Made by a program: the position numbers and the translations under genes
In this document: one piece after another, positions 11,375-47,601 of the stretch
Numbering within the stretch: position 1 is the stretch's first letter
How the letters are laid out: the number at the start of each line of letters is the position of its first letter
Notes under the pieces: generated by a model
Seen by the model: the letters and a program-made list of their open reading frames with translations, nothing else
What the model was told of the DNA's origin: nothing
The model's database searches: none
DNA from: a virus
Taxonomy: Duplodnaviria > Caudoviricetes
DNA: 64,000 nt
Direction: 5' to 3' (one strand)
IMG/VR virus record: IMGVR_UViG_3300005614_000005
Coordinates: 1 to 64,000 of that record

Positions 11375-11407
11375 AGAGCCCGCCCAATCACAACGGAAGG
11401 AGGAAGC

Positions 11408-11905: not shown

Positions 11906-11930
11906 TCCATCCACAACCGAAGGAGGTAAC

Positions 11931-19708: not shown

Positions 19709-20230
19709 GTGCCCGCCGGAATCGTTTACGCACTCTGTGAGCCCACCACTGGCGAGGTTCGGTATGTAGGACAGACGGTGCGGCGAATGAAGGACCGGCT
19801 TCGTAGTCACGTCCGATCTTCACGAACACGTAACCACCACGTCTCGCTCTGGATACGAAGGTTGGGGCGTGCCCCAGAGTGGTTCACGTTGGAGCACTGC
19901 GCCACAAAGGCTGAGCTTGATGAGGCCGAGCGCTTCTGGATCTCGTGGTACCGCCGCAACACTCCGTTCCGGCTCACCAACCTGACAGCGGGTGGTGATG
20001 CAGGAACACTAGGGTGGGTGCCAACCGCTGAGACGCGGGAGAAGCTGCGCGCTGCAACAATCGCAAACTGCAACCGCGAGGGCTGCGCACGAGGAGGACG
20101 ATGGCACCGGGGACGCACGCTTTCTCCTCAGCATCGTGCAAGAATCTCTGCGGGACTTCGTGGCAAACCAAAGAGTCGTGCGCATCGCGAAGCTCTGAGC
20201 GCGGCACGCCTGAGGAAGTCACATGCCTGA
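19709..20230 (+). CDS. GIY-YIG homing endonuclease with NUMOD3-like tail
   Basis: GIVYAL..RYVGQT..RL.SH; E..WI; LTN...GG; ETREKL and HRARIS repeats. Confidence 0.85.
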   Translation: MPAGIVYALCEPTTGEVRYVGQTVRRMKDRLRSHVRSSRTRNHHVSLWIRRLGRAPEWFTLEHCATKAELDEAERFWISWYRRNTPFRLTNLTAGGDAGTLGWVPTAETREKLRAATIANCNREGCARGGRWHRGRTLSPQHRARISAGLRGKPKSRAHREALSAARLRKSHA

Positions 20231-21557
20231 GAGACCGAAGCGTGTCATATATGGTAAGATCGGGCGCAGTGTAATCCTCGATCCCGCGAAGTGGGGACCT
20301 GTCGGAGGGGATCAAGAGCCCAGCCACCTCCTCTACCTCCTCGCCGCACGGCATCCCGACGTGGAGTTCGTTGTCGGCGGACGCTACGCAGTCGCGAAGG
20401 GGCAGGAGCTCCCGCCGAACATCGTGCTGCCCGAGCTCCCGAAGATGCGGACCCGCAACCGTTACGTCAAGGGTGTCCGCCACTTCGACGGGTCGGTGAA
20501 CCCCTGGGAAGACCTGACCGCGATCCTGCGGCCGTACTTCTTGGAGGACGGGGCGAACGTCCAGGTGCTCATGTGGGCCGGTCAGATGGGGACCTCGAAC
20601 GTCCCGATCCCGCGCGTTGAGAATCGGGGTGAACTCACTGAGCCGCAAGACTCCTTCATGAACTACGTTGCGCCGATCACGCTGAACATCAACGCGTGGC
20701 GCGACGAGGATCCGATCGGCCGCGAGGAGGTGTGGGTCCAGTCGGACGTCCGCAACTACCTCAAGTGCCGCGAGCTCAAGTGGCCCCCACGCCACCCCAT
20801 CGTCTCGCAGTTCAACCAGACCCGCAAGGCAAAGCACGAGCGTTGGGGCGACACGCGAAACCCCGCCGAGCTGGGGTTCGACGCGGAGTGGGTACCCGAG
20901 GGTGGCGTCTGGCTCGCACCCCACCACTACGAGTACACGGGACTCGAGGTCATCGCGATCCCCGACGGCTGGGGACCCGAGCTCGACCACGGAGAGCGCG
21001 AGAGCTTCGGGATCCTCATCAACGAAAGCCGGTCGAACGTCGCGCTCGACCGGCCGTCGCTCGTGCGCGACTGGGTCGTCCCCCTGAAACCGTCGTGGAT
21101 CATCGGGAAGTGGCTGCCGAAGGGCGCCGAGATTGCCCGCATCGAGCTGCCGCAGCCCTGCCACCACTCCGAGGTCGGGAAGCTCGTCGGGTCCGTCCGG
21201 TCCACCTTCATGACGCCCGGTAGCGGCTCACGCTGGCCGACCATGAAGGCACACGAGTCCTTCCGCGTCGGGACCATCTGCTTCATGCACCCCGAGTACG
21301 ACGGGCAGGGCCACATCATCCCGACCCGCAAGCAGCTCGAAGCCGGCGCCTGGGAGACCGAGCCGAACCTTCGTGCGCTGGCCGAGTGGCTACGGCCCGC
21401 CACGCCGGAGGACTTGGCGGCGCGGGTCAGGGCCGTGGATGAAAGCCCCGAGACTTACGACTGGCTGCGCGCGGCGCAGCTCGACCTCGAGTCGCGGTAC
21501 ATCGCCGCGGAACGCGGACTCAGCACCATCGAGACGCGACTTGGGTTGCGGCAGTGA
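20223..21557 (+). CDS. GT-B glycosyltransferase resembling T4 DNA beta-glucosyltransferase
   Basis: C-terminal PTMKAHESFRVGTICFMHPEYDGQGHII...EDLAARVRAV...LRAAQ parallels the T4 BGT C-terminus as recalled (TLRVWET...IDEEFDTKHRII...ELIDRVNEL...Q). Confidence 0.65.
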   Translation: MPERPKRVIYGKIGRSVILDPAKWGPVGGDQEPSHLLYLLAARHPDVEFVVGGRYAVAKGQELPPNIVLPELPKMRTRNRYVKGVRHFDGSVNPWEDLTAILRPYFLEDGANVQVLMWAGQMGTSNVPIPRVENRGELTEPQDSFMNYVAPITLNINAWRDEDPIGREEVWVQSDVRNYLKCRELKWPPRHPIVSQFNQTRKAKHERWGDTRNPAELGFDAEWVPEGGVWLAPHHYEYTGLEVIAIPDGWGPELDHGERESFGILINESRSNVALDRPSLVRDWVVPLKPSWIIGKWLPKGAEIARIELPQPCHHSEVGKLVGSVRSTFMTPGSGSRWPTMKAHESFRVGTICFMHPEYDGQGHIIPTRKQLEAGAWETEPNLRALAEWLRPATPEDLAARVRAVDESPETYDWLRAAQLDLESRYIAAERGLSTIETRLGLRQ

Positions 21558-22478: not shown

Positions 22479-22664
22479 ACGGAGGTCACGTCAAGGAGCA
22501 CCACTTCATCCAGCTCTCACCCACCGAGGGCGGCGCACTGCGTGCGCTGCTCGAGGACGTCCGCGATGACGCGAAGGCGTGGCGCATCGGGGTCACCGAG
22601 CTGCAGGACGAAGTGGCGGAGGGTATCATCAAGGTACTGGAACTCGGAGATGGAGAGGAAGCTA

Positions 22665-23300
22665 ATGTCGGGTAGTGCACACATCTCCGCAGATCAGGCG
22701 CAGCACGACCTCCTGCTCGCGCTCGCGCGCCAGGCCACTGCCTCAGCTGAGGCGCTCGAGCGCGACAACGCCGACGAACGCGCCAGCGCCGACGAGGCCA
22801 AGGTCTTCACGTTCGTCGCTGAGATCGAGTCGTGCTCCGTCGGCGAGTGCATCGAGACACTCGGCGAATGGCACCGCAAGGAGCCAGGCAGCCCCATCAC
22901 CCTCGCCCTCAACTCCCCTGGCGGCAGCGTGTTCGACGGGCTGGCGCTCTTCGACTACATCCGATGGCTCGTGAGCGAGGGTCACGACGTCACCACGCTC
23001 GGCATCGGGCAGATCTTCTCGATGGGCGCGGTCGTCCTGCAGGCGGGCTCGCGCCGCGTCATGACCCCGAACTCGTGGCTCATGATCCATGAAGTCTCCA
23101 CCGTCGCGGCGGGTAAGGGCGCGCAGATCGGCGACGAGTCCAAGCTCGTCGGTCGACTCCAGTCGCAGCTTCTTGGGATCCTCGCCGAGCGGAGCGAGTT
23201 CTCGGCACGACAGGTGAAGACGCGGTGGACGCGGAAGGACTGGTATCTCTCGGCACAGGAGGCGCTCAAGCATGGCTTCATCGACTCGGTCCAAGAGTGA
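22665..23300 (+). CDS. ClpP-like protease (S14)
   Basis: LNSPGGSVFDG, FSMG (Ser), MIHE (His), KDWYLSAQEA...GFID. Confidence 0.88.
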   Translation: MSGSAHISADQAQHDLLLALARQATASAEALERDNADERASADEAKVFTFVAEIESCSVGECIETLGEWHRKEPGSPITLALNSPGGSVFDGLALFDYIRWLVSEGHDVTTLGIGQIFSMGAVVLQAGSRRVMTPNSWLMIHEVSTVAAGKGAQIGDESKLVGRLQSQLLGILAERSEFSARQVKTRWTRKDWYLSAQEALKHGFIDSVQE

Positions 23301-33756: not shown

Positions 33757-34625
33757 GCGAAGATCACTCCTCGGGACTCTCCCGTTTCTTCACCCAGGCC
33801 TCCAAGCTACCGCTCCTCACCGCCACCCAAGAGGTCGAGCTAGCGGAACGTCGTGACAAGGGCGACAAGCGCGCCGAACAGAAGCTCGTGGAACACAACA
33901 TCCGCCTCGCGATCTCCATCGCGAAGCACTGGCGGAACCGCGGGCTCCCGCTCGAGGACCTCGTGCAAGAGGGGATGCTTGGACTCCACCGCGCCGCCAC
34001 CAAGTTTGACCCGAGCAAGGGCAACCGCTTCTCCACCTACGCGAGTTGGTGGGTCACCCACTTCGTCCAACGCGCCGTGCAGAACACAGGGCAGACGATC
34101 CGCACACCCGGTCACGTCACTGCGCGGCGCCTGACTCTCGAAAACCACCTGATGGAGTTTCCCGACACGTCGCACGAGGAGCTCGCGGTGATCGCGAAGT
34201 GCACGGTCGATGAGGTGCAGGAGGCGCTCGACGCGGGACGCATCTCAGCGTCGCTCGACTCACTACTGGACGACTCGCTCTCCGCGCACGAGATCCTCGC
34301 CGACCCAAACGCGGTGCGACCCGACGAGATCGTGGTTCAGGACCGTCGGGTGCGTGACGCGCTCGGTAAGCTCGGTGAGTTGGAACGGCGCGTCCTTGAA
34401 CTTCGCTTTGGCTTCGACGGCCCGGTTCGCAAGCGCGCGGACGTGGCGGAGATTCTCGAGGTCAGCCAGCGCTCCGTTCAGCACGCGCAGAAGGTCGCAC
34501 TCCTACGGCTGCGCGAGCTTCTCCACGACGAGCGAATGACCCCGATCACCAGCGCCGCGCTGCGCGCAGCCGCGCTGGACAAGACCGAGCCAATTTGCTC
34601 CCGACCGGAACCCGCACCATGCTGA
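33753..34625 (+). CDS. Sigma-70 family RNA polymerase sigma factor
   Basis: LVEHNIRL, DLVQEGMLGL, KFDPSKGNRFSTYASWW, region 4 ERRVLELRFG. Confidence 0.95.
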   Translation: MSEDHSSGLSRFFTQASKLPLLTATQEVELAERRDKGDKRAEQKLVEHNIRLAISIAKHWRNRGLPLEDLVQEGMLGLHRAATKFDPSKGNRFSTYASWWVTHFVQRAVQNTGQTIRTPGHVTARRLTLENHLMEFPDTSHEELAVIAKCTVDEVQEALDAGRISASLDSLLDDSLSAHEILADPNAVRPDEIVVQDRRVRDALGKLGELERRVLELRFGFDGPVRKRADVAEILEVSQRSVQHAQKVALLRLRELLHDERMTPITSAALRAAALDKTEPICSRPEPAPC

Positions 34626-35548
34626 TCATCATCGAGGGACTTGACCGTACCGGAAAGTCAACGCTCGCGGGCTTCATCGCGATGAAAAACAAGCCAACGG
34701 CGTTGCTCCACTTCAGCAAGCCCGAGAAGCACCCACTCTTCGAGTACGTCGAGCCGCTCCTCGCGTACGACCCGTGCGCACCCGGGAACGTGGTCCTCGA
34801 CCGCGGCCACCTGGGTGAGAGCGTTTGGCCGAGCGTGTTCGGGCGGGGGTCAGAGCTTGACGAGCCGACGCGGCGTTGGATCGAGCTCTTCCTGCTGTCG
34901 CGCGGCGCCGTACTCGTCCACGCGAAACGCGACCTGCAGGAGCTGATCGACGCTTGCGCGGCTGACGACGAGCCAATCCAGGGCGAGCAGATCGTGGACG
35001 CAAACGCACACTTCCGCGTGGCGCTCTCCGAATCGGTCCTGCCCCAGTTTCCCTTCTGCCACTCATCACCCGACCGTGAACTGCAGATCCTCGACATCCT
35101 GGCCCAGGGGATGCTCGACCAGATGCGCGCCGCGCTGATCACGCAGGTCACCTACGAGTGGATCGGCAACCCCCGCCCACACACCCTCCTCGTGGGGGAC
35201 CAGGGTAACCTCGGTCCCGGCCGCCGTGCTGACTGGCCGCTCCCGTTCGTGCCGTTCGGCGGCACGTCGGGCCACTTCCTCTTCGATGAGTTGGGGATCG
35301 GCGACCGGTGGAGGCACGTCGCGGTCGTGAACTCGCGGCGGCCAGACGGCGCCGTCGAGGACCTGCCTCGGCTTCACGCGTTGATGGGCTACCCTCGGGT
35401 CGTGACCCTCGGCGAGAAGGCGCACCACGTCGCGTCAGACCTCGGTGTCGAGCACGCGCAGGTGCCCCACCCGCAGTACGTGCGCCGCTTTGAGCGCCGG
35501 CGCGGTCGTGGCTACTACGCGGGGCTCATCTTGGAGGCAACATCGTGA
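34619..35548 (+). CDS. dNMP (thymidylate-type) kinase fused to a UDG-superfamily-like domain
   Basis: IEGLDRTGKST and LDRGHLGE; C-terminal VGDQ..PF..SG..L, VVN, VTLGEKA, PHP. Confidence 0.8.
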   Translation: MLIIIEGLDRTGKSTLAGFIAMKNKPTALLHFSKPEKHPLFEYVEPLLAYDPCAPGNVVLDRGHLGESVWPSVFGRGSELDEPTRRWIELFLLSRGAVLVHAKRDLQELIDACAADDEPIQGEQIVDANAHFRVALSESVLPQFPFCHSSPDRELQILDILAQGMLDQMRAALITQVTYEWIGNPRPHTLLVGDQGNLGPGRRADWPLPFVPFGGTSGHFLFDELGIGDRWRHVAVVNSRRPDGAVEDLPRLHALMGYPRVVTLGEKAHHVASDLGVEHAQVPHPQYVRRFERRRGRGYYAGLILEATS

Positions 35549-36387
35549 ACATCGAAATCGCAGACCTGCGGGGCGGCTACATCACCCTCGTGGAAGCAAT
35601 CCAGCAGCACGGCAAGCCCGTCGCGCCGCGCGGGATGCCGACGCTCGAGCTCCTGAACGCGACGGTCACACTGCACGACCCGAGTGACGCGATGCCCGTC
35701 GGGATTGGGAGGAAACCGAACCTCGCGATCGGCGCGGCCGAGGCGCTTCAGCTCATCGGCGGGTTCAGCGACCCCGAGATGATGGCGTCGATCACCAAGA
35801 ACTTCGAACGCTTCTTCGACGGCGGCGTGCTCTCCGGCGCCTACGGTCCACGTATCCGGACCCAGCTCGAGCACGTGGTCGAGCGCCTCAAGCAGGACCC
35901 CGACACCCGCCAGGCCATCGCGGTCATCTGGGATCCACTCCACGACGGGATCGGGTCGGTGCCTCGTGACCTGCCCTGCACCCTCGTGCTGCACTTCGTG
36001 ATCCGCGACGGGAAGCTCTCGCTCTGCACCACGATGCGCAGTAACGACGTGTGGTGGGGTGTCGGATACGACTTCTTCCAGTTCACCCAGCTCCAACTCT
36101 CGGTGGCACGGATCTTGAAAGTCAAGGCTGGCCCCTACTACCACCACGCCACCTCGCTGCACATGTACGAGCGCGACTTCCCCGCTGCCGAGGAGCTTCA
36201 CCAGCCCGAGTCACGCTCGGCGCCCGATCCGCGTCCACGCGGCCTGAAAGCGTCGTCCGTCGCGGAACTGCAAGAGAACGCGCGCCGGATCTGGAACCTG
36301 GAGTCGGTAATCGGCGAGGGCTTCTTGGAGCACTGGTACCGCGAGCAGCTCCGGCCCCACGTGCGTGTGAGTCGTGTGCAAGCCTAA
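35545..36387 (+). CDS. Thymidylate-synthase-family enzyme, dCMP-type (probable dCMP hydroxymethylase)
   Basis: YGPRI, DTRQA, LPC (catalytic), MRSNDVWWGVGYD (Asp at the ThyA Asn position), SLHMY. Confidence 0.85.
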   Translation: MNIEIADLRGGYITLVEAIQQHGKPVAPRGMPTLELLNATVTLHDPSDAMPVGIGRKPNLAIGAAEALQLIGGFSDPEMMASITKNFERFFDGGVLSGAYGPRIRTQLEHVVERLKQDPDTRQAIAVIWDPLHDGIGSVPRDLPCTLVLHFVIRDGKLSLCTTMRSNDVWWGVGYDFFQFTQLQLSVARILKVKAGPYYHHATSLHMYERDFPAAEELHQPESRSAPDPRPRGLKASSVAELQENARRIWNLESVIGEGFLEHWYREQLRPHVRVSRVQA

Positions 36388-36706
36388 CGTTCACGGCGAG
36401 TGGAAGATGCGCACCGAGGCGGGTCGCGAGACATGTAGGTGTTGCACGTACTGCGGCGGCATCCACCCTGAGGACCTCGTCACCTTGCTCAACGAAGGCG
36501 TGCGTCTCCAGAACACGGATTGGAAGTACGGTTGGCCGCACAAGTTCTACGTGATCGGTCCCGACGGTAGCTGGCTCGGCAAGTTCTACACGACGCACAT
36601 GCAGGAGTCCTGCGTGACCGACGAGATCCGCGAGCGCGTGCAGCGCGCCACCGGTATCCTCTACCGCGTCCACGACGGGCACCTGCACTACTGCTGCGTA
36701 GGGTAA
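36374..36706 (+). CDS. Cys-rich hypothetical protein
   Basis: CTYCGGIHP and WKYGWPHKFY. Confidence 0.6.
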   Translation: MCKPNVHGEWKMRTEAGRETCRCCTYCGGIHPEDLVTLLNEGVRLQNTDWKYGWPHKFYVIGPDGSWLGKFYTTHMQESCVTDEIRERVQRATGILYRVHDGHLHYCCVG

Positions 36707-38454
36707 TGGGCGACCTCGCGGACGTCCAGCTTACGTTCGTCGAGACGCTGGACGACCTCGACAACTTCCGCGCGTGGCTCGGCCAACGGCGCGAGTGGCT
36801 CGGCGCCGACATCGAGACGACCGGCCTGAACTGCGGACGTGACAAGGTCCGCCTCATGCAGTTCGGTGACCTCGACCAGGGGTGGGCGATTCCGTGGGAG
36901 GACTACCGCGGCGCGATCAAGGACCTCCTGCCCCGGTATAAGGGCCGGATCGTTTTCCACAACGCCATCTTCGACACGAAGTTCCTCAAGCGGGAGGGCG
37001 TTCACATCCCGCAGGAGTGGTGCCACGACACGATGGTCATGTGTCACCTCCTCGACCCGCGCACCAGCATCGGCCTCAAGAGCGCGGCCGCGCGGTACGT
37101 GGACCGACGCGCGTGGATCGGTAAGGACGCGCTGAGCGAAGCCTTCCGCCACGGGAAATGGGACTGGGCGACAGTCCCCGTTGACCATCCCTCCTACTGG
37201 CTCTACTCCGCGCTCGACACCGTCCTGACCGCGCACCTCGCCGCGGCCATCTGGCCCAAGGTCGAGCCCTTCCGCAAGGTGTACGAGGTCGAGATGGCGT
37301 GCATCCACGTACTTCGCGACGCGGGGCTGACCGGCGTTCGGATCGACATGCCGTACGTCGAAGAGAAGCGTGTCGAGCTTTTGCTCGAGCTGGAGCAGCT
37401 CTCGGCGCAGATCCCGTGCGAACCGTCCAAGGACGCGCAGGTCGTGAAGATGTTGCAGGAACGCGGCGCCGTACTCACCCACAAGACCAAGTCGGGCGCC
37501 ATCTCCGTGGACGACGAAGCACTCGCCGAGGTGGAGCCGTCCTTCCCCGACATCGTCAAGCCGCTCCGCGAGTGGCGGACCAAGTCACGACTCGTGTCGT
37601 CGTACCTCGACAACATGCTCTCGATGAACGTGGACGGAATCCTGCACCCGTCGGTCAAGCCGCTCGGCGCGCGAACTGCGCGCATGTCAGTGACCGAGCC
37701 CGCACTCCAGACGCTGCCCCGTGGTCGCACGATCCGCGACGCATTCATCTCGCGTGAGGGCCAGACGCTGATCCTCGCGGATTACGAGCAGGCCGAGCTT
37801 CGGGTGCTGGCGAGCTTCGCGCACGAGACGTCGATGATCGAGGCGTTCATGCGCGGCGAGGACCTGCACCGGTGGGTCGCCTCGCAGGCGTACCAGAAGA
37901 CGACCGAGGAAGTCACCAAGCCCGAGCGGCAGGTGTCGAAGAACACGCAGTTCGCGCGGGTCTACGGCGCCGGCAACGCGAAGATCGCGCTCACCGCTGG
38001 CGTGCCGGTTGCCGTTATCGACCAGTTTGTCATGCGGTACAACCAGCTCTTCCCGGGCATCCCGGAATTCACAAACGCAACGATCCGCGAAGTGCTCAGC
38101 ACGCAGTTCAACGGCGAGAGTAAGTGCGGGTACGTCGAGACGATCCTCGGCCGCCGGCTCCCCGTCGAGCACAACAAGTCATACGTCGGGGTCAACTACA
38201 AGGTCCAGTGTTCGGCGACCGCCGACCTGCTCAAGTTGAAGCTCGTGGAGCTCGACGCGGCGGGGCTCGGCGAGTTCATCCGCCTTCCAGTCCACGACGA
38301 GATCATGTTTGAGGTCCCAGACGACCAGCTCGATGAAGTCGAGGAGGTCGTGCGCCGCGTGATGCCTGAGACCAAGCTCTTCGAGTGCCCGATCACGGTG
38401 GATGTAGAGCGCACGAAGTGCTGGGGCCACAAGTACGGCTGGGCTGAGAATTGA
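36706..38454 (+). CDS. Family A DNA polymerase with 3'-5' exonuclease
   Basis: DIETTG, HNAIFD, YSALD; motif A ADYEQAELR, motif B K...F...YG, motif C VHDE. Confidence 0.95.
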   Translation: MGDLADVQLTFVETLDDLDNFRAWLGQRREWLGADIETTGLNCGRDKVRLMQFGDLDQGWAIPWEDYRGAIKDLLPRYKGRIVFHNAIFDTKFLKREGVHIPQEWCHDTMVMCHLLDPRTSIGLKSAAARYVDRRAWIGKDALSEAFRHGKWDWATVPVDHPSYWLYSALDTVLTAHLAAAIWPKVEPFRKVYEVEMACIHVLRDAGLTGVRIDMPYVEEKRVELLLELEQLSAQIPCEPSKDAQVVKMLQERGAVLTHKTKSGAISVDDEALAEVEPSFPDIVKPLREWRTKSRLVSSYLDNMLSMNVDGILHPSVKPLGARTARMSVTEPALQTLPRGRTIRDAFISREGQTLILADYEQAELRVLASFAHETSMIEAFMRGEDLHRWVASQAYQKTTEEVTKPERQVSKNTQFARVYGAGNAKIALTAGVPVAVIDQFVMRYNQLFPGIPEFTNATIREVLSTQFNGESKCGYVETILGRRLPVEHNKSYVGVNYKVQCSATADLLKLKLVELDAAGLGEFIRLPVHDEIMFEVPDDQLDEVEEVVRRVMPETKLFECPITVDVERTKCWGHKYGWAEN

Positions 38455-38831
38455 GCAAGAACCGCCGCAGTTACGTCCACATCTTCTTCGCCCACAACGG
38501 TCCGGGACCGTACGAGTGCTTCTTCTGTCATAAGCCCGTCACTTTCGATGACGTCAACATTCATCACAAGGATGAAGACCCCGAGAATAACGATCCAGCG
38601 AACTTGAAGGCCTCACACCGCGGATGCCACAACAGTTTTCATAACAAGGGTCACACGTGGAATCGTGGTAAGCGATGGAATGCAGAGCAGCGAGCACGCC
38701 ACTCTGCGTTGATGCGAAAACGATACGAGGATCCAGAGTATCGAGCACGACAAGCTGCGACACAGAACGCGCGTCCCCGTGATGCGAAGGGTCGTCTTAT
38801 GCCAGGAGCAGCGTGCGCGTCCTCGCGATAG
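38451..38831 (+). CDS. HNH endonuclease (free-standing, lower GC)
   Basis: CFFC..IHHKDEDPENN...NL....CHNSFH. Confidence 0.85.
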   Translation: MSKNRRSYVHIFFAHNGPGPYECFFCHKPVTFDDVNIHHKDEDPENNDPANLKASHRGCHNSFHNKGHTWNRGKRWNAEQRARHSALMRKRYEDPEYRARQAATQNARPRDAKGRLMPGAACASSR

Positions 38832-39268
38832 ATCCGGGCGGCAACACGGGCCTCGCGCTCTGGAATGACGGGGCGTGGTGGGCGTGGGCTGAGCCAGCGG
38901 AGCAAGCGCTCGTTACGGTGCACAACGCCCTCAATGACGGCGACCTCAACCAGCTCGTGTCAGAGTCGTTCATCATCTCGACAGCGACCGCCAAGAAGAG
39001 TCAGGACGGTCTCGTGTCCATCGAGATGATCGGGGTCATGCGGTACCTCTCGCGCGTGTACAACGTTCCCTTTGAGACGCAGACGCCCTCCGACGCGAAG
39101 AGCTTCGCGACCGACGAAAAGCTCAAGGCGTGGAAGTGGTGGACGCGCGGTGTAGATCACCCGCGCGATGCCTCGCGGCACCTGATGACCTGGCTCTGCA
39201 AGCACGGCTACATCGACCTCACCGAGCTTCGACACCGTCTGGATTCCGCGAGCGGCGGCGCGAGCTGA
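38813..39268 (+). CDS. RuvC-like Holliday junction resolvase
   Basis: VLAIDPGGNTG, VSESF, HPRDASRH. Confidence 0.8.
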   Translation: MRVLAIDPGGNTGLALWNDGAWWAWAEPAEQALVTVHNALNDGDLNQLVSESFIISTATAKKSQDGLVSIEMIGVMRYLSRVYNVPFETQTPSDAKSFATDEKLKAWKWWTRGVDHPRDASRHLMTWLCKHGYIDLTELRHRLDSASGGAS

Positions 39269-39323
39269 GTATGGTCCGATCCGTGCCCAAGCCCTCGCCG
39301 TCCACCGTCCTAGGAGACGCGAC

Positions 39324-41099
39324 GTGCCGTATGTAGAGCGTTGGGGCGACGACCGGATCGTCATCCACTCCGAGTATCGCGAACGTGAACTTGTGAAGCA
39401 GGTGCCCGGCGCGAAGTGGGACGACGCCACGAAAGTGTGGTGGTGTCCGTTGTCGTGGGCCGCGTGCATGCAGCTTCGCGGCGTGTTCGGCGACCTACTT
39501 CAGATCGGGGAGCAGCTCGTCACGTGGGCGCAGGGCGAGCTCGACGGCCGCGTGTCGCCGTGTCTCGTCCTGCGCGAAGCTGAGGACGCTGAGCTGCCCG
39601 CGGGCGTAGTGCCCGCCACGCTTCCGAAAACTGGCGACACGTTCCGCGGGAAACTCGTGGAGGCGGATTGGGATCTTGAGCCGCGGCAGCGCGCCGGCGT
39701 GCGGTTTCTCGCCACCGCGCGCCGCGCAGCGCTCTGTGACGGAATGGGTTCCGGCAAGACGGTGCAGACGATCATCGCGCTCGAGATGCTCGCCGCCGAA
39801 GGGAAGGACCCGTACCCGGCGGTCGTTGTCTGCCCGAACTCGATGAAGGCCACGTGGTGGGAGGAGTTCGACCTCTGGGCGCCACATCGCAAGGTGACCG
39901 TCATTCGCGGTGGCGCCGCCGCGCGCCGCAAGCTCCTCGCCGAGCCCGCCGACGTGTACGTGTTCAACTGGGAGGGGCTCCGCAGCCACACCCGCCTCGC
40001 GGGCTACGGGTTCATCCGCCTCAGCGAAGACGAGAAAACGGACAAGGAGCTCAACCTCATGCCGCTCCGTTCGTTCGTCGCTGACGAGGCGCACCGCGCG
40101 AAGGACCCTAAATCGAAGCAGACCCGCGCCGCGTGGGCCATCGCGCGGAAGTGCGAGTTCCGCTTCGCGCTGACCGGCACCCCGCTCGCGAACTCGCCCG
40201 AGGACACCTGGGCAATCATGCACATGCTCGAACCCCGCGAGTGGCCGTCACGCACGCAGTTCGTGGACCGCTACGCGTTGCAGTCGTGGAGCAACTTCGG
40301 GTTCATGCAAGTGACGGGGATCCGCGGCGAGAACCGCGACGAGTTCCTGCGAATCCTCGATCCGCGCTTCCTCCGGCGTCCGACGAAGATCGTCGTGCCC
40401 GACCTGCTCGACAAGCTACCTCCGCAGGTGCGTCACGTCGAACTGGTGCCGAAGCAGCGCAAGGCCTATGAACAACTTCGCAAGGAGCTTCTCGCCGAGC
40501 TTGACTCCGGCGTCCTGATGGCCACCAACCCGCTGACACGCATGACGCGACTCATTCAGCTCGCGGCCGCGTACGGAGAGGTCGAGAACGGGGTGGACAT
40601 GAAGCTCTCCGAGCCGAGCGCGAAGCTCGACGCGCTCGATGAGTTCTTGGAGGACGTCGGACCCGAAGAACAGGTCGTCGTCTTCGCCGAGTCGCGGCAG
40701 CTCATCGAACTCGCGGCCAAGCGCCTCGAGAAGCACAAGGTTCCGTTCGGCCTGATCACCGGCGCGCAGCAGGACTTCGAGCGTCAGCGATCCGTCCAAG
40801 ACTTCCAGGCGGGCAACCTCAGGGTCATTCTCGCCACGCTCGGCGCCGGCGGCGAGGGGTTGACCCTGACAGCCGCGCGGCACGTCGTCTTCCTGCAGAG
40901 GTCGTTCTCGTTGGTGAAGAACAGGCAGGCCGAGGACCGAGTCTACCGCAAGGGGCAGACCCGTGAGGTCCAGCGTACCGACATCGTCGCCGTCAACACC
41001 ATCGAGGAGCACGTCCTCCTCGTCGGCGAGGACAAGGAGGAACGTCTCGAGGAAATCTGCCGCGATGAGGAGGTGCTTCGCAGATGGCTTACCAAGTAG
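39324..41099 (+). CDS. SNF2-family helicase
   Basis: DGMGSGKT, DEAH, LTGTP, GEGLTLT, QAEDRVYRKGQ. Confidence 0.93.
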   Translation: MPYVERWGDDRIVIHSEYRERELVKQVPGAKWDDATKVWWCPLSWAACMQLRGVFGDLLQIGEQLVTWAQGELDGRVSPCLVLREAEDAELPAGVVPATLPKTGDTFRGKLVEADWDLEPRQRAGVRFLATARRAALCDGMGSGKTVQTIIALEMLAAEGKDPYPAVVVCPNSMKATWWEEFDLWAPHRKVTVIRGGAAARRKLLAEPADVYVFNWEGLRSHTRLAGYGFIRLSEDEKTDKELNLMPLRSFVADEAHRAKDPKSKQTRAAWAIARKCEFRFALTGTPLANSPEDTWAIMHMLEPREWPSRTQFVDRYALQSWSNFGFMQVTGIRGENRDEFLRILDPRFLRRPTKIVVPDLLDKLPPQVRHVELVPKQRKAYEQLRKELLAELDSGVLMATNPLTRMTRLIQLAAAYGEVENGVDMKLSEPSAKLDALDEFLEDVGPEEQVVVFAESRQLIELAAKRLEKHKVPFGLITGAQQDFERQRSVQDFQAGNLRVILATLGAGGEGLTLTAARHVVFLQRSFSLVKNRQAEDRVYRKGQTREVQRTDIVAVNTIEEHVLLVGEDKEERLEEICRDEEVLRRWLTK

Positions 41100-41725
41100 G
41101 TCCGGTCGCACACAACGCGCACCGTCGCTCGCGGAAGCCGAAGGTCGGCGTCGACATCGACGGAGTCCTGTACCCATTCGACCTCGCGGCACGGACGCTG
41201 TTGAAGTTGCGCGGCGTGGACGTAACCGTAGCGGATGACGCACAGTATTGGAATCACACCGCGGAGCTCGTTGGTCACGAGGCGTGGGAGTGGATCTGGG
41301 GCCCCGGCCGCCGACAGGTCTTCGAGGCGGCGCCTCCGTACCCCGGCGCGATCAAGGCCATGCGCCGTTTGGAACAGGACGTGCGGATCGTGTACGTTAC
41401 CCACCGCCCACTCGACGTGGCGCACGTCACGCTGCGCTGGCTCGCCTACCACAAGCTCAACCCCCACGCCGTCATCCACGCATCCGGCGAGGAGAAGTCG
41501 CAGTACGCGACCGACTGCATCGCCTTCATCGAGGACCGCGCCGAAAACGCCCGCGAGATCGCAGACGCCAGCGACGCAACCGTCTGGGTCCCGTGCCGGA
41601 CGTGGAACTCGGACGTGGGTATCCTCCCTGAGGATGCAGTACGTCCCAACCTACGAACATTCAATGACTGGAAGGAGGTGACGGAGTGGATCAAACAAGC
41701 AGTCCAGACGGAAGCGACATCCTGA
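41084..41725 (+). CDS. HAD 5'(3')-deoxyribonucleotidase-like protein
   Basis: VDIDGVL, VTHR, FIEDR, WN. Confidence 0.8.
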   Translation: MAYQVGPVAHNAHRRSRKPKVGVDIDGVLYPFDLAARTLLKLRGVDVTVADDAQYWNHTAELVGHEAWEWIWGPGRRQVFEAAPPYPGAIKAMRRLEQDVRIVYVTHRPLDVAHVTLRWLAYHKLNPHAVIHASGEEKSQYATDCIAFIEDRAENAREIADASDATVWVPCRTWNSDVGILPEDAVRPNLRTFNDWKEVTEWIKQAVQTEATS

Positions 41726-41988
41726 GCGAGGCGTACAAGCTCATCCGCGGTGAGCGGTTGCAGCACTACGGCCCCCCGATCAAGAACTTCGAGCGCATCG
41801 CGAAGGGGTGGACCGCCTACCTGGGCGACCGCTTGAAGGTTGACCTGACGGTCAACGACGTGTGCGCGATGATGGTCATCCTCAAGCAGATGCGCATGGC
41901 GGAGGGGTACCACCGCGACTCGGCGACCGATACCGCCGGATACGCAGCGCTGCAGGAAATCCTCGCCGAGGGAGTGGAGCTGACGTGA
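41686..41988 (+). CDS. DUF6378-like all-alpha protein
   Basis: GER...YG....NFERIA..W; M...K..R; D..GY. Confidence 0.75.
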   Translation: MDQTSSPDGSDILSEAYKLIRGERLQHYGPPIKNFERIAKGWTAYLGDRLKVDLTVNDVCAMMVILKQMRMAEGYHRDSATDTAGYAALQEILAEGVELT

Positions 41989-42207
41989 GAATGACGGTGA
42001 CAGACGACGAGGTGACGGTTCACGTCTCCCGTCGAAACCTGCTCACCCTCTTGCACAAGCTCGAGATGGCGGACTCGAAGCGCACCCTGTCCCGCCGTCC
42101 ACACGACGGCGGGTCGCGTATCTTGACCCTCGTCGCCGACGAAGACGACACCCACTACGGCGACCGTGTGCCAGGCGCCGTCCACCCACTAACCGAGGCT
42201 GCGATCC

Positions 42208-42861
42208 ATGGCTCCTGAGTTTCAAGGCTTTCCGAAAATCCCCCGCCTCCACCGTGGCCTCACGATCACCGAGAAGATCGACGGCACGAACGCGGCGGTA
42301 GGGGTAGAAAAGCTGGACAAGGTGCAGGAGGGCACACACCCGCTTGGAACTCTCGTCACCCTCGCGCGTCCCTACCCGGAGGAGGGCGAGATAGACTCGT
42401 ACCTCGTCTACGCGCAGTCGCGGACGCGGATCATCGTTCCCGGCGACGACAACTACGGGTTCGCGTTGTGGGTTTCGCAACACGCAACGGAGCTCGCGGA
42501 GCTCGGCCCGGGCGTGCACTTCGGCGAGTGGTGGGGCGTGGGGATCAACCGCGCCTACGACCTCCACGAGCGCCGCTTCTCCCTCTTCAACACCTCCCGC
42601 TGGAGCGAGGAGCGCCCCGCGTGCTGTGGCGTCGTGCCGGTGCTCGGCGAACTCGACAACTTCCACTCGCCCACCGTCGAAGAGATCGGCCTCGCCCTCT
42701 CGCAGAGTGGGTCCGTCGCCGCACCTGGGTTCAAGCGTCCCGAGGGCGTCGTGGTCTTCCACAAGGCCGCGAACTTCTGCTTCAAGTGGACCTTCAACGG
42801 CGACGGCCACAAGTCTGAGAGCAGCAAGCGCACTCGGCGCGGAAACCGCGGCGGGTCGTGA
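42208..42861 (+). CDS. ATP-dependent RNA ligase (Rnl2-like adenylation domain)
   Basis: FPKIPR, TEKIDGTN, QSR, FGEWWG, PEGVV. Confidence 0.85.
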   Translation: MAPEFQGFPKIPRLHRGLTITEKIDGTNAAVGVEKLDKVQEGTHPLGTLVTLARPYPEEGEIDSYLVYAQSRTRIIVPGDDNYGFALWVSQHATELAELGPGVHFGEWWGVGINRAYDLHERRFSLFNTSRWSEERPACCGVVPVLGELDNFHSPTVEEIGLALSQSGSVAAPGFKRPEGVVVFHKAANFCFKWTFNGDGHKSESSKRTRRGNRGGS

Positions 42862-43112
42862 ACGTCCACGACCTCATCTTCGCGGTCGGGTCGGGCATCT
42901 TCGCGGTTTCGCTCGTACCCGCCGTCGTCAAGCGGACACAGATGCCGCTCTCGTCGTCGCTCCCGACGGCCATCGTCCTGTCGGCGTTCCTCGCGAACTA
43001 CGTGTGGATGGGCTTTGCGTGGTCGGCGGTGACGACGGCCTGCACGGCGCTCTGCTGGTGGGCGCTCGTGGTCAGACGCGACAGTCGCGCACTCCCGATC
43101 AAGCGCTCATGA
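42858..43112 (+). CDS. Small three-TM membrane protein (PQ-loop/SemiSWEET-like)
   Basis: Three hydrophobic helices with a Pro at the end of TM1. Confidence 0.45.
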   Translation: MNVHDLIFAVGSGIFAVSLVPAVVKRTQMPLSSSLPTAIVLSAFLANYVWMGFAWSAVTTACTALCWWALVVRRDSRALPIKRS

Positions 43113-44026
43113 CGAAGCTCCTCACCAACAGTGAGATGAAGCTCTGGCGCCGGTGCAAGCGGCACTGGTGGCTTAGCCACTACCGCGGCCTGCGCCGCGC
43201 GGACGTCGAGTTCAACAAGCCACTCAGCATCGGCAGCCGCGTACACGAGTGCCTGGAGGCCCTGTACGGCGTAGACAAACGCGGCGACCCACTCGCCAAG
43301 CTGCGTGAAACGGTCGACATGGACCTCGCGAAGTTTCCCATGCACGCCACCGACATCGCCAAGGAGGCCGACCTCTGTCAAGCCATGCTGGAAGGTTACC
43401 TGCAGTGGCTCGAGGAAGAAGGTTGCGACATCGGGTTCCGCGTGGTTGCGAGCGAGGGTCGGCGCGAAGCCCCACTGATCGACGGCGTGAACCTGCTCGC
43501 GAAGCTCGACGCCCGCGTGGTCCACGAGGAGCGTGCCGACATTCGGTTGGCCCTAGAGCACAAGACGGTGGGCGACCTGTCAACACCGCTCACGCTGTTG
43601 CAAATCGACACCCAGCTCTTGACCGAGCATCTCGTTGAGTTCCTCGCGTTGCGTGAGGAAGGTCGCGAGAGCGAGGCTGCGCAGGGCGTGCTCTACAACA
43701 TGCTGCGCAAGGTCAAGCGAACCGCTCGCGCGAAGCCACCGTTCTACGGTCGCGAGGAGGTCAACCACAACGTGCACGAGCTCCGTGTACATTGGTTGCA
43801 CGTGCAACGAATCGCGGAAGAGATCTTGCAGGCGGAACGCGAACTCGCGGAAGGGAAGCAGCACCATGAGGTGGTGTACCCGAACCCTACGAGGGACTGC
43901 CGATGGGATTGTGAGTTCTTTCATTTGTGCCCACTTCTCAACGATGGCTCTGACTATGAGGCTCTCATCGCAGCAGATTACGTTGTAGGTAATCCTCTTG
44001 AGCGGTATGCTGACGCTCCAGAGTGA
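43109..44026 (+). CDS. PD-(D/E)XK (Cas4/RecB-like) exonuclease
   Basis: CKR, GSRVH, KLD, EHKT, CRWDCEFFHLC. Confidence 0.88.
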   Translation: MTKLLTNSEMKLWRRCKRHWWLSHYRGLRRADVEFNKPLSIGSRVHECLEALYGVDKRGDPLAKLRETVDMDLAKFPMHATDIAKEADLCQAMLEGYLQWLEEEGCDIGFRVVASEGRREAPLIDGVNLLAKLDARVVHEERADIRLALEHKTVGDLSTPLTLLQIDTQLLTEHLVEFLALREEGRESEAAQGVLYNMLRKVKRTARAKPPFYGREEVNHNVHELRVHWLHVQRIAEEILQAERELAEGKQHHEVVYPNPTRDCRWDCEFFHLCPLLNDGSDYEALIAADYVVGNPLERYADAPE

Positions 44027-44100
44027 AGACGTACACGCTTTCTTAGCATTCTGACGAATGCTGCCGATGTTGCCACAACCGACGGGTAGAGTTCGTCAAG

Positions 44101-44799
44101 TTGAGACCGACTCTCTCCATTCTGATCCACGGGGACGCCGGCGTCGGTAAGAGCCGACTCGCAGGTACCGGCCCCACGCCGCTTCTCATCCTCGACGCCG
44201 AGGGTAGGGCGCGGTACCTTCCCGGCCGCAAGGTCGTGTGGAACCCGTACACGGAGCAGCCGCCCGTCGCCGACGGGTCGTGGGACATCTGCATCGTCGT
44301 CATCTCGAAGTTCGATGACCTGTCCCAGGTGTTCCAGTGGTTGCAGTCGGGCCAGCACCCGTTCGTCTCCGTCGCGCTCGACTCGTTGATGGAGGCGCAG
44401 AAGCGTCTCATCGACCAGGTCGCCGGCATGGAGCAGCTCCAGACACAAGACTGGGGGGTTGTCCTTCGTAGACTTGAGGCACTCGTACGGTCGTACCGCG
44501 ACCTGACGATCGTTGACAGCAATCCACTCGACTGCGCGATCTTTACGGTTGGCACGCAGGTCAGCGACACCGGTCGGTACGAACCACTTCTTCAGGGCGC
44601 GCTTCGCCGGACCCTGCCCTACTACATGGACACGGTCGGCTACCTTTACGTGACGCACGAAGTTGAGGGTCAACCTACAAGGAACCTGCTCGTGCAGCCA
44701 ACGCAGACCATCGTAGCAAAGGACGGAACCGATCGTCTAGGCGGTCCGGTGATCCAGAATCCGAACCTGTCACAACTATTCAAGGAGCTCACCGGATGA
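44101..44799 (+). CDS. AAA_24 / Sak4-like recombination ATPase
   Basis: HGDAGVGKS, LDAE, ALDS, WG, AKD. Confidence 0.85.
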   Translation: MRPTLSILIHGDAGVGKSRLAGTGPTPLLILDAEGRARYLPGRKVVWNPYTEQPPVADGSWDICIVVISKFDDLSQVFQWLQSGQHPFVSVALDSLMEAQKRLIDQVAGMEQLQTQDWGVVLRRLEALVRSYRDLTIVDSNPLDCAIFTVGTQVSDTGRYEPLLQGALRRTLPYYMDTVGYLYVTHEVEGQPTRNLLVQPTQTIVAKDGTDRLGGPVIQNPNLSQLFKELTG

Positions 44800-45485
44800 C
44801 AACGGTAAACCTGCAAGACGCATTCAAGCAGTACCAGAAGGAAGACGAGGTGACCGTCCTGGAGGAGGGCGAGTACACGCTCGAGGTGATCCGCTGCGCC
44901 GTTCGCGGCCAGGACAAGAACGCGCTGATGCCCGTCTACCGGGTAATCGGCGGTCCCTACGCTGGCAAGACCGTCATGGCCGGCCAGCTCACCCTCACCG
45001 AGAACTCGCGGTCGATCTTCTTCCGCAACCTCAAGGGCTTCGGGATCGAGGAAGCCTTCATCATGCAGTCCGCTGGCGGGCTGGACGACATCGCCAAAGC
45101 GCTCATCGGGCGCGTCGTCAAGATGAAGGTCCAGAAGCGCCAGTGGCAGGGCAACGACCGCAACCAGTTCCCCATTGGCGGGGTCATGCTGGTCTCGCTT
45201 CCGTCACAGCCGGGCGCGCCGCAGGCCGCCGCGCAGCAGGCCGCTCCGGTCGCTCCGCAGGTCGCCCAGCCGCCAGCTGCTCCCGCAGTTCAGCAGCAGG
45301 CACCTCCGCCGGTGCAGGAGCAGGCGCCGCCGCCACCCGCCGCGCCGGTGCAGCAGCAAGCTCCCCCGCCTGCGGCTCCCGCTGCGACCGCACAGCAGAC
45401 CCCACCCCCGCCCCCGAACCCCGCCGCGGCTCCCCCTCCGCCGCCACCCCCCGCAGGCGGCGCTCCGACGGGCACCCCCTTCTAG
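44796..45485 (+). CDS. DUF669-like single-stranded DNA-binding protein with Pro/Gln/Ala tail
   Basis: EGEY..EV and GGPYAGK motifs; tail ending PF; follows the exonuclease and ATPase. Confidence 0.7.
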   Translation: MTTVNLQDAFKQYQKEDEVTVLEEGEYTLEVIRCAVRGQDKNALMPVYRVIGGPYAGKTVMAGQLTLTENSRSIFFRNLKGFGIEEAFIMQSAGGLDDIAKALIGRVVKMKVQKRQWQGNDRNQFPIGGVMLVSLPSQPGAPQAAAQQAAPVAPQVAQPPAAPAVQQQAPPPVQEQAPPPPAAPVQQQAPPPAAPAATAQQTPPPPPNPAAAPPPPPPPAGGAPTGTPF

Positions 45486-45491
45486 GCCGCC

Positions 45492-45890
45492 ATGCGCGAC
45501 CTGCTCGCACGGCAGCGGAGGCTTCAAGTCGAAGCCTTCGCTGTCGACCCGCACGAGTTGACTGGTGAGGACCGCGTCGAGTACGTTCGGATGAACGTCC
45601 TTGCGGTCGTAGACGAGGCGATGGAGATGCTCCACCACGTCAACGGCTGGAAGAACTGGCAGACCGAGCGCTCGCGCGCCGGCGAGATCGCGGATCTTCA
45701 AGAGTACATCGGCGAGGGCGTCGATCTCCTGCACTTTGTGGCCAATTTGCTGAACGTTGCAGGAGTCGATGACCAAGAACTCGACGCGCTCTTCGCGAAA
45801 AAGCAGCGCGTGAACGCACAGCGGCAGGCCCTCGGGTACGAGGGTCACGGCGACGACTTCGCCGCGGCGCACCCGCAGGTGATGGCGTGA
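45492..45890 (+). CDS. Dimeric all-alpha dUTPase/dCTPase
   Basis: Q..LQ, DEAMEM, WKNW, EGVDLLHF, K..VN.QRQ..GY. Confidence 0.85.
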   Translation: MRDLLARQRRLQVEAFAVDPHELTGEDRVEYVRMNVLAVVDEAMEMLHHVNGWKNWQTERSRAGEIADLQEYIGEGVDLLHFVANLLNVAGVDDQELDALFAKKQRVNAQRQALGYEGHGDDFAAAHPQVMA

Positions 45891-46324
45891 AGCTCGCGGC
45901 ATCCGAGCGCCCGTGCAGCGGCTGCGCGCACTCCGCGAGTGGGATTCCGTATCCTGGGCATCCGTCGGGTGAGCGACCTTGCTGCTTCTGCGTCCGCAAC
46001 CCCGAACTGGCGCGCACCAGCGACGTCTGCCGCGACAGCGACGGTAACGGGGTCTGGTACGACGGCAAGACACCCGCGTACAAGACGCCGATGGACAACT
46101 ACATCGCGACCGACCGTCTCCAGCAAGAGCGGCTCTTCGCCGTGCTTGGTGCCATCGAGCGTGGAGAACTGACGGTCAAGCCGCGGCAAACACTCGCTGA
46201 GTTCTACGGGGTAGATTGTGATGTAGGTATGGGCGACCCCAAGACCATGTGTTGTGAGGGCGGCCCGTTTCCCGGCGGCCACAGCGGTGGGTGCATTCTT
46301 CTCGTGGGGGTTTCCATATCATGA
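45887..46324 (+). CDS. Cys-rich hypothetical protein
   Basis: RPCSGC and RPCCFC; overlaps both neighbours. Confidence 0.55.
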   Translation: MKLAASERPCSGCAHSASGIPYPGHPSGERPCCFCVRNPELARTSDVCRDSDGNGVWYDGKTPAYKTPMDNYIATDRLQQERLFAVLGAIERGELTVKPRQTLAEFYGVDCDVGMGDPKTMCCEGGPFPGGHSGGCILLVGVSIS

Positions 46325-47601
46325 CTCATCCGTTCGTTGACGTGCAAGGTCTCGCCGGCGCCTGGACGCTTGGCACGGTGCAGGCGGGCTTCGAGTTGAA
46401 GCACCGCGTGTCGCTGCCCGGCGGCTTCGGCGACGCCGCCATCGACGCGAACCGGCACCTCGTCGGCGACGGGTGGGCGCAGGAGACCGGCGACCCGGTC
46501 GAAGCCTGGACGCCTCAGGAGGGCGTCGCCTACATCTGCGGCACGCCGCCGTGCTCGGGCTTCTCGCTACTGAACAGCGCGAAGGGATCCAACGCGCGCG
46601 GTCCCGAGTCCAGCATCAACAACTGCATGAAGGAGCTCGTCAAGTACGCCGGTCAGTGCACCGGCTCCGACGGGCGTCCCGGCCCTCAGATCGTCAGCTT
46701 CGAGAGCGTGCAGGGCGCCTACACGCAGGGCCGCGGGCTCATGCAGTACCTGCGCGACATGCTCAACGAGACCTCCGGCTCGCACTACAGCCTGTCTCAC
46801 GTCCTGATGTCGGGCGCGTCCGTGGGCAACGCGCAGATGCGGCACCGCTTCTACGTCGTCTTCCACCGGATCCCGTTCGGCGTGGACCAGCCTCAGGAAC
46901 GGAAGGTCGTCACCTACGCGGACGCCATCGAGGATCTGATCGGCGGCACACTCCAGTGGGAGCCGCAGCCGTACCCCACGCACGACACGCTACCCGACGG
47001 CAGGCCCGACCTCTCGCCGTACGCCACCCCACTTCGCTCGTCGTCTGGCAACTTCGACGCGCACGTGACCATCGACCACGGCCGCTCCGCCTCCGTCATC
47101 AAAGAGGTGTGGGACGTCTGGAAGCCAGGTCAGAGCCTGCCCGAAGCGCTGCTCGCCGCGGGCCTCCGTCCTCCGACGCTCGAAAAAAGCTTCGTGGAGA
47201 ACTTCGAAGGGACCGGCAAGCCCGGCTACAAGGGCTGGAGCTGGCCCGTCAAGGTGCGCCCGGACCGACCGGGGTACGTGCTGACGGGCGGGGGTATCCA
47301 CGGGTTCGTCCACTGGGCCGAGCCTCGTCTCCTCTCAGCGCGCGAGTGCTCGCGTCTGATGGGCTACCCTGACGACTGGACCTGGCCTACCAACTCCGTC
47401 AACCAGGCAAGCGCCTGGATCGGCAAGTGCTGCCCCGTCACGTCAGGACGATGGATCTCATCGTTCGTACGGCGTGCGCTGGACGGCGATCCCGCGTCAC
47501 CGCTCGAGCAGATCGGGCCGCGTGAGTTCTATTACAACTGCACCCTGGCCTACAAGAAGTGGCCTGGTGGCGCCGTCCCCAAGCGGGTAAGATCGAGGTA
47601 G
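46321..47601 (+). CDS. DNA cytosine-C5-methyltransferase homolog with degenerate SAM-binding motifs
   Basis: Motif IV GTPPCSGFS, VI FESVQG, VIII QMRHR, IX RECSRLMGYPDD; motif I DVQGLAGAW and X IGKCCP are atypical. Confidence 0.85.
   Translation: MTHPFVDVQGLAGAWTLGTVQAGFELKHRVSLPGGFGDAAIDANRHLVGDGWAQETGDPVEAWTPQEGVAYICGTPPCSGFSLLNSAKGSNARGPESSINNCMKELVKYAGQCTGSDGRPGPQIVSFESVQGAYTQGRGLMQYLRDMLNETSGSHYSLSHVLMSGASVGNAQMRHRFYVVFHRIPFGVDQPQERKVVTYADAIEDLIGGTLQWEPQPYPTHDTLPDGRPDLSPYATPLRSSSGNFDAHVTIDHGRSASVIKEVWDVWKPGQSLPEALLAAGLRPPTLEKSFVENFEGTGKPGYKGWSWPVKVRPDRPGYVLTGGGIHGFVHWAEPRLLSARECSRLMGYPDDWTWPTNSVNQASAWIGKCCPVTSGRWISSFVRRALDGDPASPLEQIGPREFYYNCTLAYKKWPGGAVPKRVRSR

Follow-up and report, generated by a model that had tools for sequence, protein, structure and literature searches.

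Does an uncultured tailed phage replace the cytosine of its DNA before replication, and if so, with which base? The question is raised by a plus-strand operon in the IMG/VR virus record IMGVR_UViG_3300005614_000005 (Duplodnaviria; Caudoviricetes), which comprises 93,167 bases, has ends that repeat over 110 bases and is classed as complete. The window considered here is the first 64 kb of that record, with a GC content of about 65%. A first-pass annotation read positions 34619-47601 of the window as a pre-replicative pathway of cytosine substitution in a phage with a family-A DNA polymerase (PolA), the product being 5-hydroxymethylcytosine (5hmC) or else 5-methylcytosine (5mC) or 5-hydroxycytosine. 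All computational tests agree with such a pathway and narrow the product to 5hmC, which the phage probably makes by a scheme of the T4 type and probably glycosylates afterwards. The basis of this reading is residues, folds, homology and gene linkage, from which we infer what each enzyme does, which base is made, which sugar is attached and how far cytosine is replaced.

The thymidylate synthase homolog

The gene at 35545..36387 on the plus strand encodes, from a GTG start, a protein of 280 amino acids (aa) with the thymidylate synthase (TS) fold (PF00303, E 6.8e-20) and the signature of a synthase of 5-hydroxymethyl-deoxycytidine monophosphate (5hm-dCMP). It is the sole TS-family gene in the complete genome. 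Residue equivalences were taken from a direct alignment with Escherichia coli ThyA and T4 gp42 and were checked against a HMMER alignment to a solved TS structure: C145 of the phage protein corresponds to C146 of ThyA, T146 to H147, D142 to L143, S166 to S167, D168 to D169, D176 to N177, R122 to R126, E66 to E58 and Y100 to Y94. The motif RSND-x7-D, to which the first-pass annotation had drawn attention, is found at residues 165-176 (R-S-N-D-V-W-W-G-V-G-Y-D, nt 36037-36072). Its final Asp, at the ThyA-177 position, is no chance substitution: of the 120 best metagenome homologs 118 have it, as do all 79 homologs taken from IMG/VR loci. The catalytic residues C145, E66 and Y100 are invariant across 36 homologs, and Asp142, at the ThyA-143 position, is invariant in the clade alignment.

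According to Lee et al. 2026 (PMC13326640), the exchange N177D goes with dCMP as substrate, and an acidic residue at position 143 (L143D/E), linked with the access of water, goes with hydroxymethyl and not with methyl products. Asn is found at 177 in the aligned deoxyuridine monophosphate (dUMP) hydroxymethylase homologs of ViI-like, M6-like (PAE1) and Shanette phages; the first-pass annotation had taken Asp at this position to mark enzymes acting on dCMP, such as T4 gp42, and Asn those acting on dUMP. Zhao et al. 2016 (PMC5175136) showed that deoxy-specific enzymes are marked by Ser167 together with Arg126', where the CMP enzyme MilA has Ala and Lys. In the work of Yang et al. 2021 (PMC8670742), positions 177 and 147 were the two that best told TS homologs from cytosine-modified phage contigs apart from all others, homologs with Asp177 and a residue other than His147 being enriched in deaminase-resistant, cytosine-modified phage contigs. 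The TS homolog described here combines the TS fold and its catalytic residues with Asp177, an acidic residue at 143 and the Ser167/Arg126' pair, and on every residue count it fits the class of the 5hm-dCMP synthases. The tryptophans W80/W83 of ThyA were dropped as a discriminator, since the first of them is kept in T4 gp42.

Among solved structures the best relative by sequence, nearly over the full length, is the CMP 5-hydroxymethylase MilA of mildiomycin biosynthesis (PDB 5b6d, 5jnh; E 1.3e-24, 90 bits), which serves an antibiotic pathway and not DNA. At positions 143 and 177 MilA and the phage enzyme alike carry Asp; Ala176 and Lys133 give MilA its preference for the ribonucleotide, whereas Ser and Arg stand in the phage enzyme, as they do in the deoxy-specific ones. 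The nearest homologs from cultured phages are dUMP hydroxymethylases of thymidine-hypermodifying phages (ViI-like, M6-like/PAE1 and SPO1-like relatives; 84-120 bits); ThyA scores 54 bits and T4 gp42 51 bits. The dUMP hydroxymethylases share Asp143 with the phage enzyme but have Asn at 177 and Cys-Asn in place of its Cys-Thr. The nearest characterized relatives of the TS homolog, MilA and the dUMP hydroxymethylases, are all hydroxymethylases, which speaks for the 5hm-dCMP reading. T4 gp42 and the TS homolog have D-x-x-C-T, MRSNDV and Asp177 in common.

That the gene encodes an ordinary thymidylate synthase, and the phage has canonical DNA, is scarcely credible. The TS fold and all general catalytic residues would allow it, but Asp, Thr and Asp stand where canonical ThyA has Asn177, His147 and Leu143, the Pfam match stops at model position 230 of 266, leaving the C-terminal part of the TS model unmatched, and the gene sits among a gp56 homolog, a glycosyltransferase resembling the T4 beta-glucosyltransferase (BGT) and a nucleotide kinase.

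Partner enzymes and their conservation

An all-alpha nucleoside triphosphate pyrophosphatase is encoded at 45492..45890 on the plus strand (PF08761, E 2e-9). As the first-pass annotation had proposed, it belongs with the dCTPase/dUTPase gp56 of T4: the family profile aligns with gp56 over 107 columns (hhalign probability 98.4%, E 4.7e-15), acidic and aromatic motifs are common to both, and gp56 too matches PF08761. The conserved motifs are WK-W, E-VD-HF-N and K-N-RQ-GY. By these profile matches the protein is a true homolog of gp56, and it is predicted to hydrolyze dCTP.

The deoxynucleoside monophosphate (dNMP) kinase noted in the first reading is likewise present, at 34619..35548 on the plus strand. 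It has the P-loop EGLDRTGKST and a thymidylate-kinase-like fold, and it is fused to a domain of the uracil-DNA glycosylase (UDG) superfamily. The gene overlaps the start of the TS homolog by 4 nt, which suggests co-translation of the two. An AlphaFold2 model (pLDDT 90.9) consists of two domains, of which the N-terminal one matches YorR/BSU20280 and thymidylate kinases (Z 13.8-12.1), while residues 177-317 match the family-4 UDG of Thermotoga maritima (1l9g; Z 11.7, 134 aa, 23% identity). Further matches of the UDG domain are to UdgX (Z 10.8) and to the PolA-UDG of phage phiLo (Z 9.4). By sequence, 21 of 41 homologous C-terminal domains match PF03167 weakly, and the profile of the domain found no match among PDB sequences. 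The UDG motifs G-[DE]-x-x-N (motif A), PF (stacking Phe), N246 (base-reading Asn) and HPQ (motif B His) are conserved among the 41 homologs, whose invariant columns include no conserved Cys of the kind that holds the Fe-S cluster in families 4 and 5.

A glycosyltransferase of the GT-B fold (444 aa), structurally closest to T4 BGT, is encoded outside the flagged range at 20223..21557 on the plus strand. It has no Pfam match, and hence none to the BGT family PF09198, and no PHROG match. Its AlphaFold2 model (pLDDT 93.9) finds T4 BGT as the top structural match (Z 22.9/22.8, 313-315 aa aligned, rmsd 3.6-3.9), followed by the next GT-B structure at Z 19.2; a profile comparison with the C-terminus of BGT, the UDP-binding end, is weak (probability 38%). 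The gene lies about 24 kb from the pyrophosphatase gene in this genome, and in several relatives it is contiguous with the gp56-like gene and with a gene for a protein of the C5-cytosine methyltransferase fold, which is treated below. Whole-record counts were made on 31 viral records bearing the TS homolog. Five of them carry the BGT-like glycosyltransferase and 21 a second glycosyltransferase family, often as tandem paralogs. The two types never occur together, and one or the other is present in 27 of the 31, as well as in the genome described here. Profile comparison gives no demonstrable kinship between the two families (probability 1.3%), and neither profile matched a solved structure by sequence. 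A glycosyltransferase of the second family precedes, in the metagenome-assembled phage DSL-LC01 (our record L092, 685-7019), genes for a UDP-galactopyranose mutase and the pyrophosphatase and then the methyltransferase-like gene; the second family also occurs, often as two tandem paralogs, in G005, G011, G012 and other relatives. Because most relatives have this second family, and because a UDP-galactopyranose mutase adjoins it in DSL-LC01, the sugars are suggested to differ between branches of the clade.

The glycosyltransferases bear on two further explanations of the TS homolog. It could be a dCMP methyltransferase as in Xanthomonas phage XP12, which would lead to pre-replicative 5mC; N177D alone turns ThyA into a dCMP methylase, according to literature cited in PMC8670742, and the methyltransferase-like gene in the module makes chemistry of the 5mC type plausible. 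We regard this as improbable, given the invariant Asp at 143 with its link to hydroxymethyl products, the presence in nearly all relatives of glycosyltransferases, which need a hydroxyl acceptor, and the lack of an encoded dihydrofolate reductase (DHFR) to recycle the dihydrofolate from a methylase. The first-pass annotation saw no DHFR in the window, and none exists in the whole 93-kb genome, which likewise encodes no ThyX and no second TS; this absence is weak evidence, because a host enzyme could serve. Alternatively, the TS homolog could be a flavin-dependent 5-hydroxy-dCMP synthase of the RB69 gp48 or DLP3 gp80 type, with the sugar placed on 5-hydroxycytosine. The 5-hydroxy-dCMP systems of RB69, DLP3 and RL38JI, which transfer arabinosyl or hexosyl groups (PMC13326640), resemble the present one in N177D, L143D/E, a dNMP kinase and DNA glycosyltransferases, and clusters of the RL38JI type contain a UDP-galactopyranose mutase, as does DSL-LC01. 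Their diagnostic mark is D169N (PMC13326640), and it is absent here: Asp168 is invariant in the alignment of 36 sequences and 115 of 121 homologs have the motif RSND, in contrast to RSQN in the Mosigvirus homolog of the alignment. This makes a 5-hydroxy-dCMP synthase very improbable. By its motif RSQN the homolog of Escherichia phage 55 is of the 5-hydroxy-dCMP type.

Relatives of the TS homolog are encoded on at least 409 IMG/VR contigs. Neighborhoods were counted in 80 IMG/VR loci with flanks of 10 kb, and reverse counts started from the methyltransferase-like family (80 loci, 24 long records). The common order in the TS loci is kinase-UDG, TS homolog, dCMP deaminase, PolA, RuvC, SNF2, PD-(D/E)XK and AAA_24, then often a glycosyltransferase and the pyrophosphatase. 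The kinase-UDG gene adjoins the TS homolog in 75 of the 80 loci, in most of them as the fusion and in a few relatives as the kinase alone (about 170-180 aa), and PolA is linked to the TS homolog in 79. The gp56-like gene occurs in 30 of the 31 TS-bearing records, including 7 of 7 complete ones, and the methyltransferase-like gene in 25 of the 31. Conversely, 69 of the 80 methyltransferase-like loci have the pyrophosphatase nearby, usually as the adjacent gene, and the TS homolog is present in 21 of the 24 long records with the methyltransferase-like gene, including 10 of 10 that are complete. The TS homolog, the kinase-UDG fusion, the gp56-like enzyme, one of the two glycosyltransferase types and the methyltransferase-fold protein travel together.

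Two further genes that the first-pass annotation had assigned to the pathway are present but stand outside this conserved set. The proposed nucleotidase is a HAD/NT5C-like phosphatase (41084..41725, plus strand) with a marginal match to PF06941 (E 6e-6, 26.6 bits versus a cut-off of 24.8), found in 1 of the 80 loci; it also matches a PHROG named polynucleotide kinase and has an RNA-ligase-like gene nearby, and its part in the pathway is doubtful. The DUF6378 protein (41686..41988, plus strand; PF19905, E 1.3e-23) is found in 8 of the 80 loci, and the literature on DUF6378, which concerns phages of Faecalibacterium, Klebsiella and Brucella, assigns no function to it.

The dCMP deaminase that directly follows the TS homolog in 73 of the 80 relatives, together with the dUMP hydroxymethylases as the nearest phage homologs of the TS homolog, could point to a different route, in which deamination would turn 5hm-dCMP, as a mere intermediate, into 5hm-dUMP, and thymine instead of cytosine would be modified. 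This can be given very little credence. The complete genome described here has no match to the deaminase family PF00383; the deaminase slot is occupied by a Cys-rich open reading frame (ORF) of 110 aa (36374..36706, plus strand), which has no similarity to the dCMP deaminase of DSL-LC01. The dUMP hydroxymethylases act on dUMP and feed pathways with 5-hydroxymethyluracil (5-hmU) DNA kinases, but Pfam scans that covered the flagged region and the remaining large ORFs of the window revealed neither a 5-hmU DNA kinase nor genes of the aGPT-Pplase type. T4, moreover, likewise pairs a dCMP deaminase with its hydroxymethylase.

For the 5hmC pathway the following sequence of steps is proposed. The gp56-like pyrophosphatase would hydrolyze dCTP (and dUTP) to the monophosphate, which would lower the dCTP pool and at the same time feed the hydroxymethylation step. 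The TS-fold enzyme would transfer a methylene group from methylene-tetrahydrofolate to C5 of dCMP, and attack of water on the intermediate would yield 5hm-dCMP. The thymidylate-kinase-like domain of the fusion may then form the diphosphate and the nucleoside diphosphate kinase of the host the triphosphate, for incorporation of 5hm-dCTP by the phage polymerase. After replication the BGT-like glycosyltransferase probably adds a sugar to the hydroxymethyl group, and the fused UDG domain probably removes uracil, or the deaminated modified base, from phage DNA.

The methyltransferase-fold enzyme and the extent of the proposed replacement

The last gene of the flagged stretch (46321..47601, plus strand) encodes an enzyme of the C5-cytosine methyltransferase fold, which matches PF00145 (E 4.8e-16) from model position 63 only. 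In its family the catalytic motifs PPCS (IV), FESV/E-x-V (VI) and RxR (VIII) are invariant. Motifs I, II and X normally hold S-adenosylmethionine (SAM). Here motif I reads [VI]DCxGLAG, the acid of motif II is missing and motif X has GK for GN, and these alterations are consistent across sequences that are only 30-59% identical. Invariant catalytic motifs combined with consistently altered cofactor motifs point to a conserved but unusual function. In a few relatives (G010, 11116-12242; G019; G022) the methyltransferase-like frame contains an in-frame stop, which may reflect a broken gene or an assembly error. Between the genes for the pyrophosphatase and the methyltransferase-like protein lies a second small Cys-rich ORF (45887-46324), a counterpart of which is missing from the close relative L008.

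Either cytosine remains in the DNA for this enzyme to methylate, or the modified base is its substrate. In the first case 5hm-dCTP would be made, but only part of the cytosines would be replaced, or replacement would be confined to a certain stage, and the enzyme would be an ordinary site-specific methylase that protects the remaining cytosine. The conservation of the gene with the module and the retention of all covalent-catalysis motifs speak for this, and neither a nuclease specific for cytosine-containing DNA nor an Alc-like function was identified. Six-base palindromes are mildly under-represented genome-wide (mean z about -2; lowest CGATCG, TTCGAA, GTCGAC and TGGCCA), which could also be taken in its favor. 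The near universality in the clade of a homolog of gp56, which in T4 is what excludes dCTP, speaks against it, as do motifs I, II and X, whose consistently non-canonical form is unlike that of a routine SAM methylase. We consider partial replacement unlikely.

In the second case the enzyme would not be a methylase at all. It might act after replication, attack C6 of the (possibly glycosylated) 5hmC and install a new group by exocyclic-methylene chemistry, with the kinase-UDG fusion policing deamination products. This proposal is speculative and we hold it to be possible but doubtful; if true, it would add an undescribed hypermodification of cytosine, and the enzyme would be to cytosine what the amino-acid:DNA transferases are to 5-hmU.

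Several observations weigh against the 5hmC reading. The TS homolog has 30% identity to T4 gp42 over 137 aa and is not its ortholog, so that the residue rules are extended beyond the lineages that served to test them. The match of the glycosyltransferase to BGT rests on the fold with weak sequence support, and its acceptor is a prediction. The conserved methyltransferase-fold gene is unexplained by a plain T4-type scheme, and since an ordinary methylase would need unmodified cytosine, replacement may be incomplete. The mild avoidance of palindromes is not expected of fully protected DNA, although this signal is ambiguous. The clade is also without a cultured member: a search of 50,697 phage records gave DSL-LC01 as the best match (42%).

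Genome setting and relation to known systems

The PolA of the phage (36706..38454, plus strand) combines a family-A polymerase (PF00476, E 5e-67) with a 3'-5' exonuclease (PF01612, E 1e-14). Its nearest relatives are polymerases of Micrococcus, Arthrobacter, Microbacterium and Streptomyces phages (33-37% identity), and an actinobacterial host is therefore likely. The operon contains a sigma-70 family factor (33753-34625) directly upstream of the kinase-UDG gene, followed by the TS homolog, the first Cys-rich ORF, PolA, an HNH endonuclease (38451-38831), a RuvC-like gene and an SNF2 helicase. It continues with the HAD phosphatase, DUF6378, the RNA-ligase-like gene, a PD-(D/E)XK nuclease (43109-44026, plus strand), AAA_24, DUF669, the pyrophosphatase, the second small ORF and the methyltransferase-like gene. 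The replication and recombination block, recognized by Pfam and PHROG matches (38813..45485, plus strand; RuvC-like, SNF2 helicase, PD-(D/E)XK nuclease, AAA_24 RecA-like and DUF669), separates the two halves of the module, and its order is conserved in 70-73 of the 80 related loci. The HNH endonuclease, between PolA and the RuvC-like gene, occurs in only 2 of the 80 loci and is for that reason probably a mobile insertion. Elsewhere in the window, the early region contains a ClpP-like protease (22542-23300), and an XkdF-like protease is encoded at 51014-51946. RNA-repair-like genes are scattered at 9289-9750, 27209-29311, 41084-41725 and 42208-42861; the set comprises a 'Swiss Army Knife' RNA-repair HAD domain, a 2H phosphoesterase-MuF-like fusion, the HAD/PNK-like phosphatase and the RNA-ligase-like protein.

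The predicted genes resemble the hydroxymethylcytosine pathway of T4 in four functions, namely the gp56 dCTPase, the gp42 dCMP hydroxymethylase, the gp1 dNMP kinase and the beta-glucosyltransferase. In contrast to T4, the kinase resembles thymidylate kinases and carries a fused UDG domain, the polymerase belongs to family A and not B, the TS homolog is no ortholog of gp42, and a C5-methyltransferase-fold protein is a conserved member, all in a 93-kb phage of 65% GC with an actinobacteriophage-like PolA. The contigs obtained by MetaGPA (PMC8670742) are similar in that, where cytosine is modified, TS homologs with Asp177 and a non-His147 residue go together with a dCMP deaminase and an all-alpha pyrophosphohydrolase. 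That work followed a branch with a carbamoyltransferase, and none was found here by Pfam scans covering the flagged region and the remaining large ORFs of the window; term searches of PMC8670742 gave no mention of the kinase-UDG fusion or the methyltransferase-like member. A family-4-like UDG fused to a replication-linked enzyme is also found in the PolA-UDG of phiLo (PDB 9qhs; PMC13697223), from phages with T-modified genomes; in the present phage the dNMP kinase, and not the polymerase, is the fusion partner of the UDG, and cytosine is the predicted modified base.

Systems of this kind are known, and earlier work has already linked Asp177-bearing TS homologs to modified phage DNA. New here are a complete T4-like set with its gp56-like and BGT-like members in a clade of PolA phages, the fusion of kinase and UDG, and an association, seemingly obligate, with the atypical methyltransferase-fold enzyme. 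A search of the literature on this clade, or on hydroxymethylcytosine in actinophages, found nothing relevant, DSL-LC01 being covered by a genome description only.

Pre-replicative hydroxymethylcytosine with glycosylation has been worked out mainly in the T-even phages of enterobacteria. The genes described here suggest the same logic in a large uncultured clade of family-A-polymerase phages, whose nearest cultured relatives infect actinobacteria, with parts recruited from different lineages and with two extra conserved members, the kinase-UDG fusion and the methyltransferase-fold enzyme. If this is true, the clade would provide a second, independent model of viral base replacement, and it would explain why viral DNA of this kind resists restriction as well as some methods of sequencing and cloning. 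Work on DNA modification would gain new enzymes, namely a hydroxymethylase, glycosyltransferases of two families, a fusion with UDG and the methyltransferase-fold enzyme, whose cofactor site is altered.

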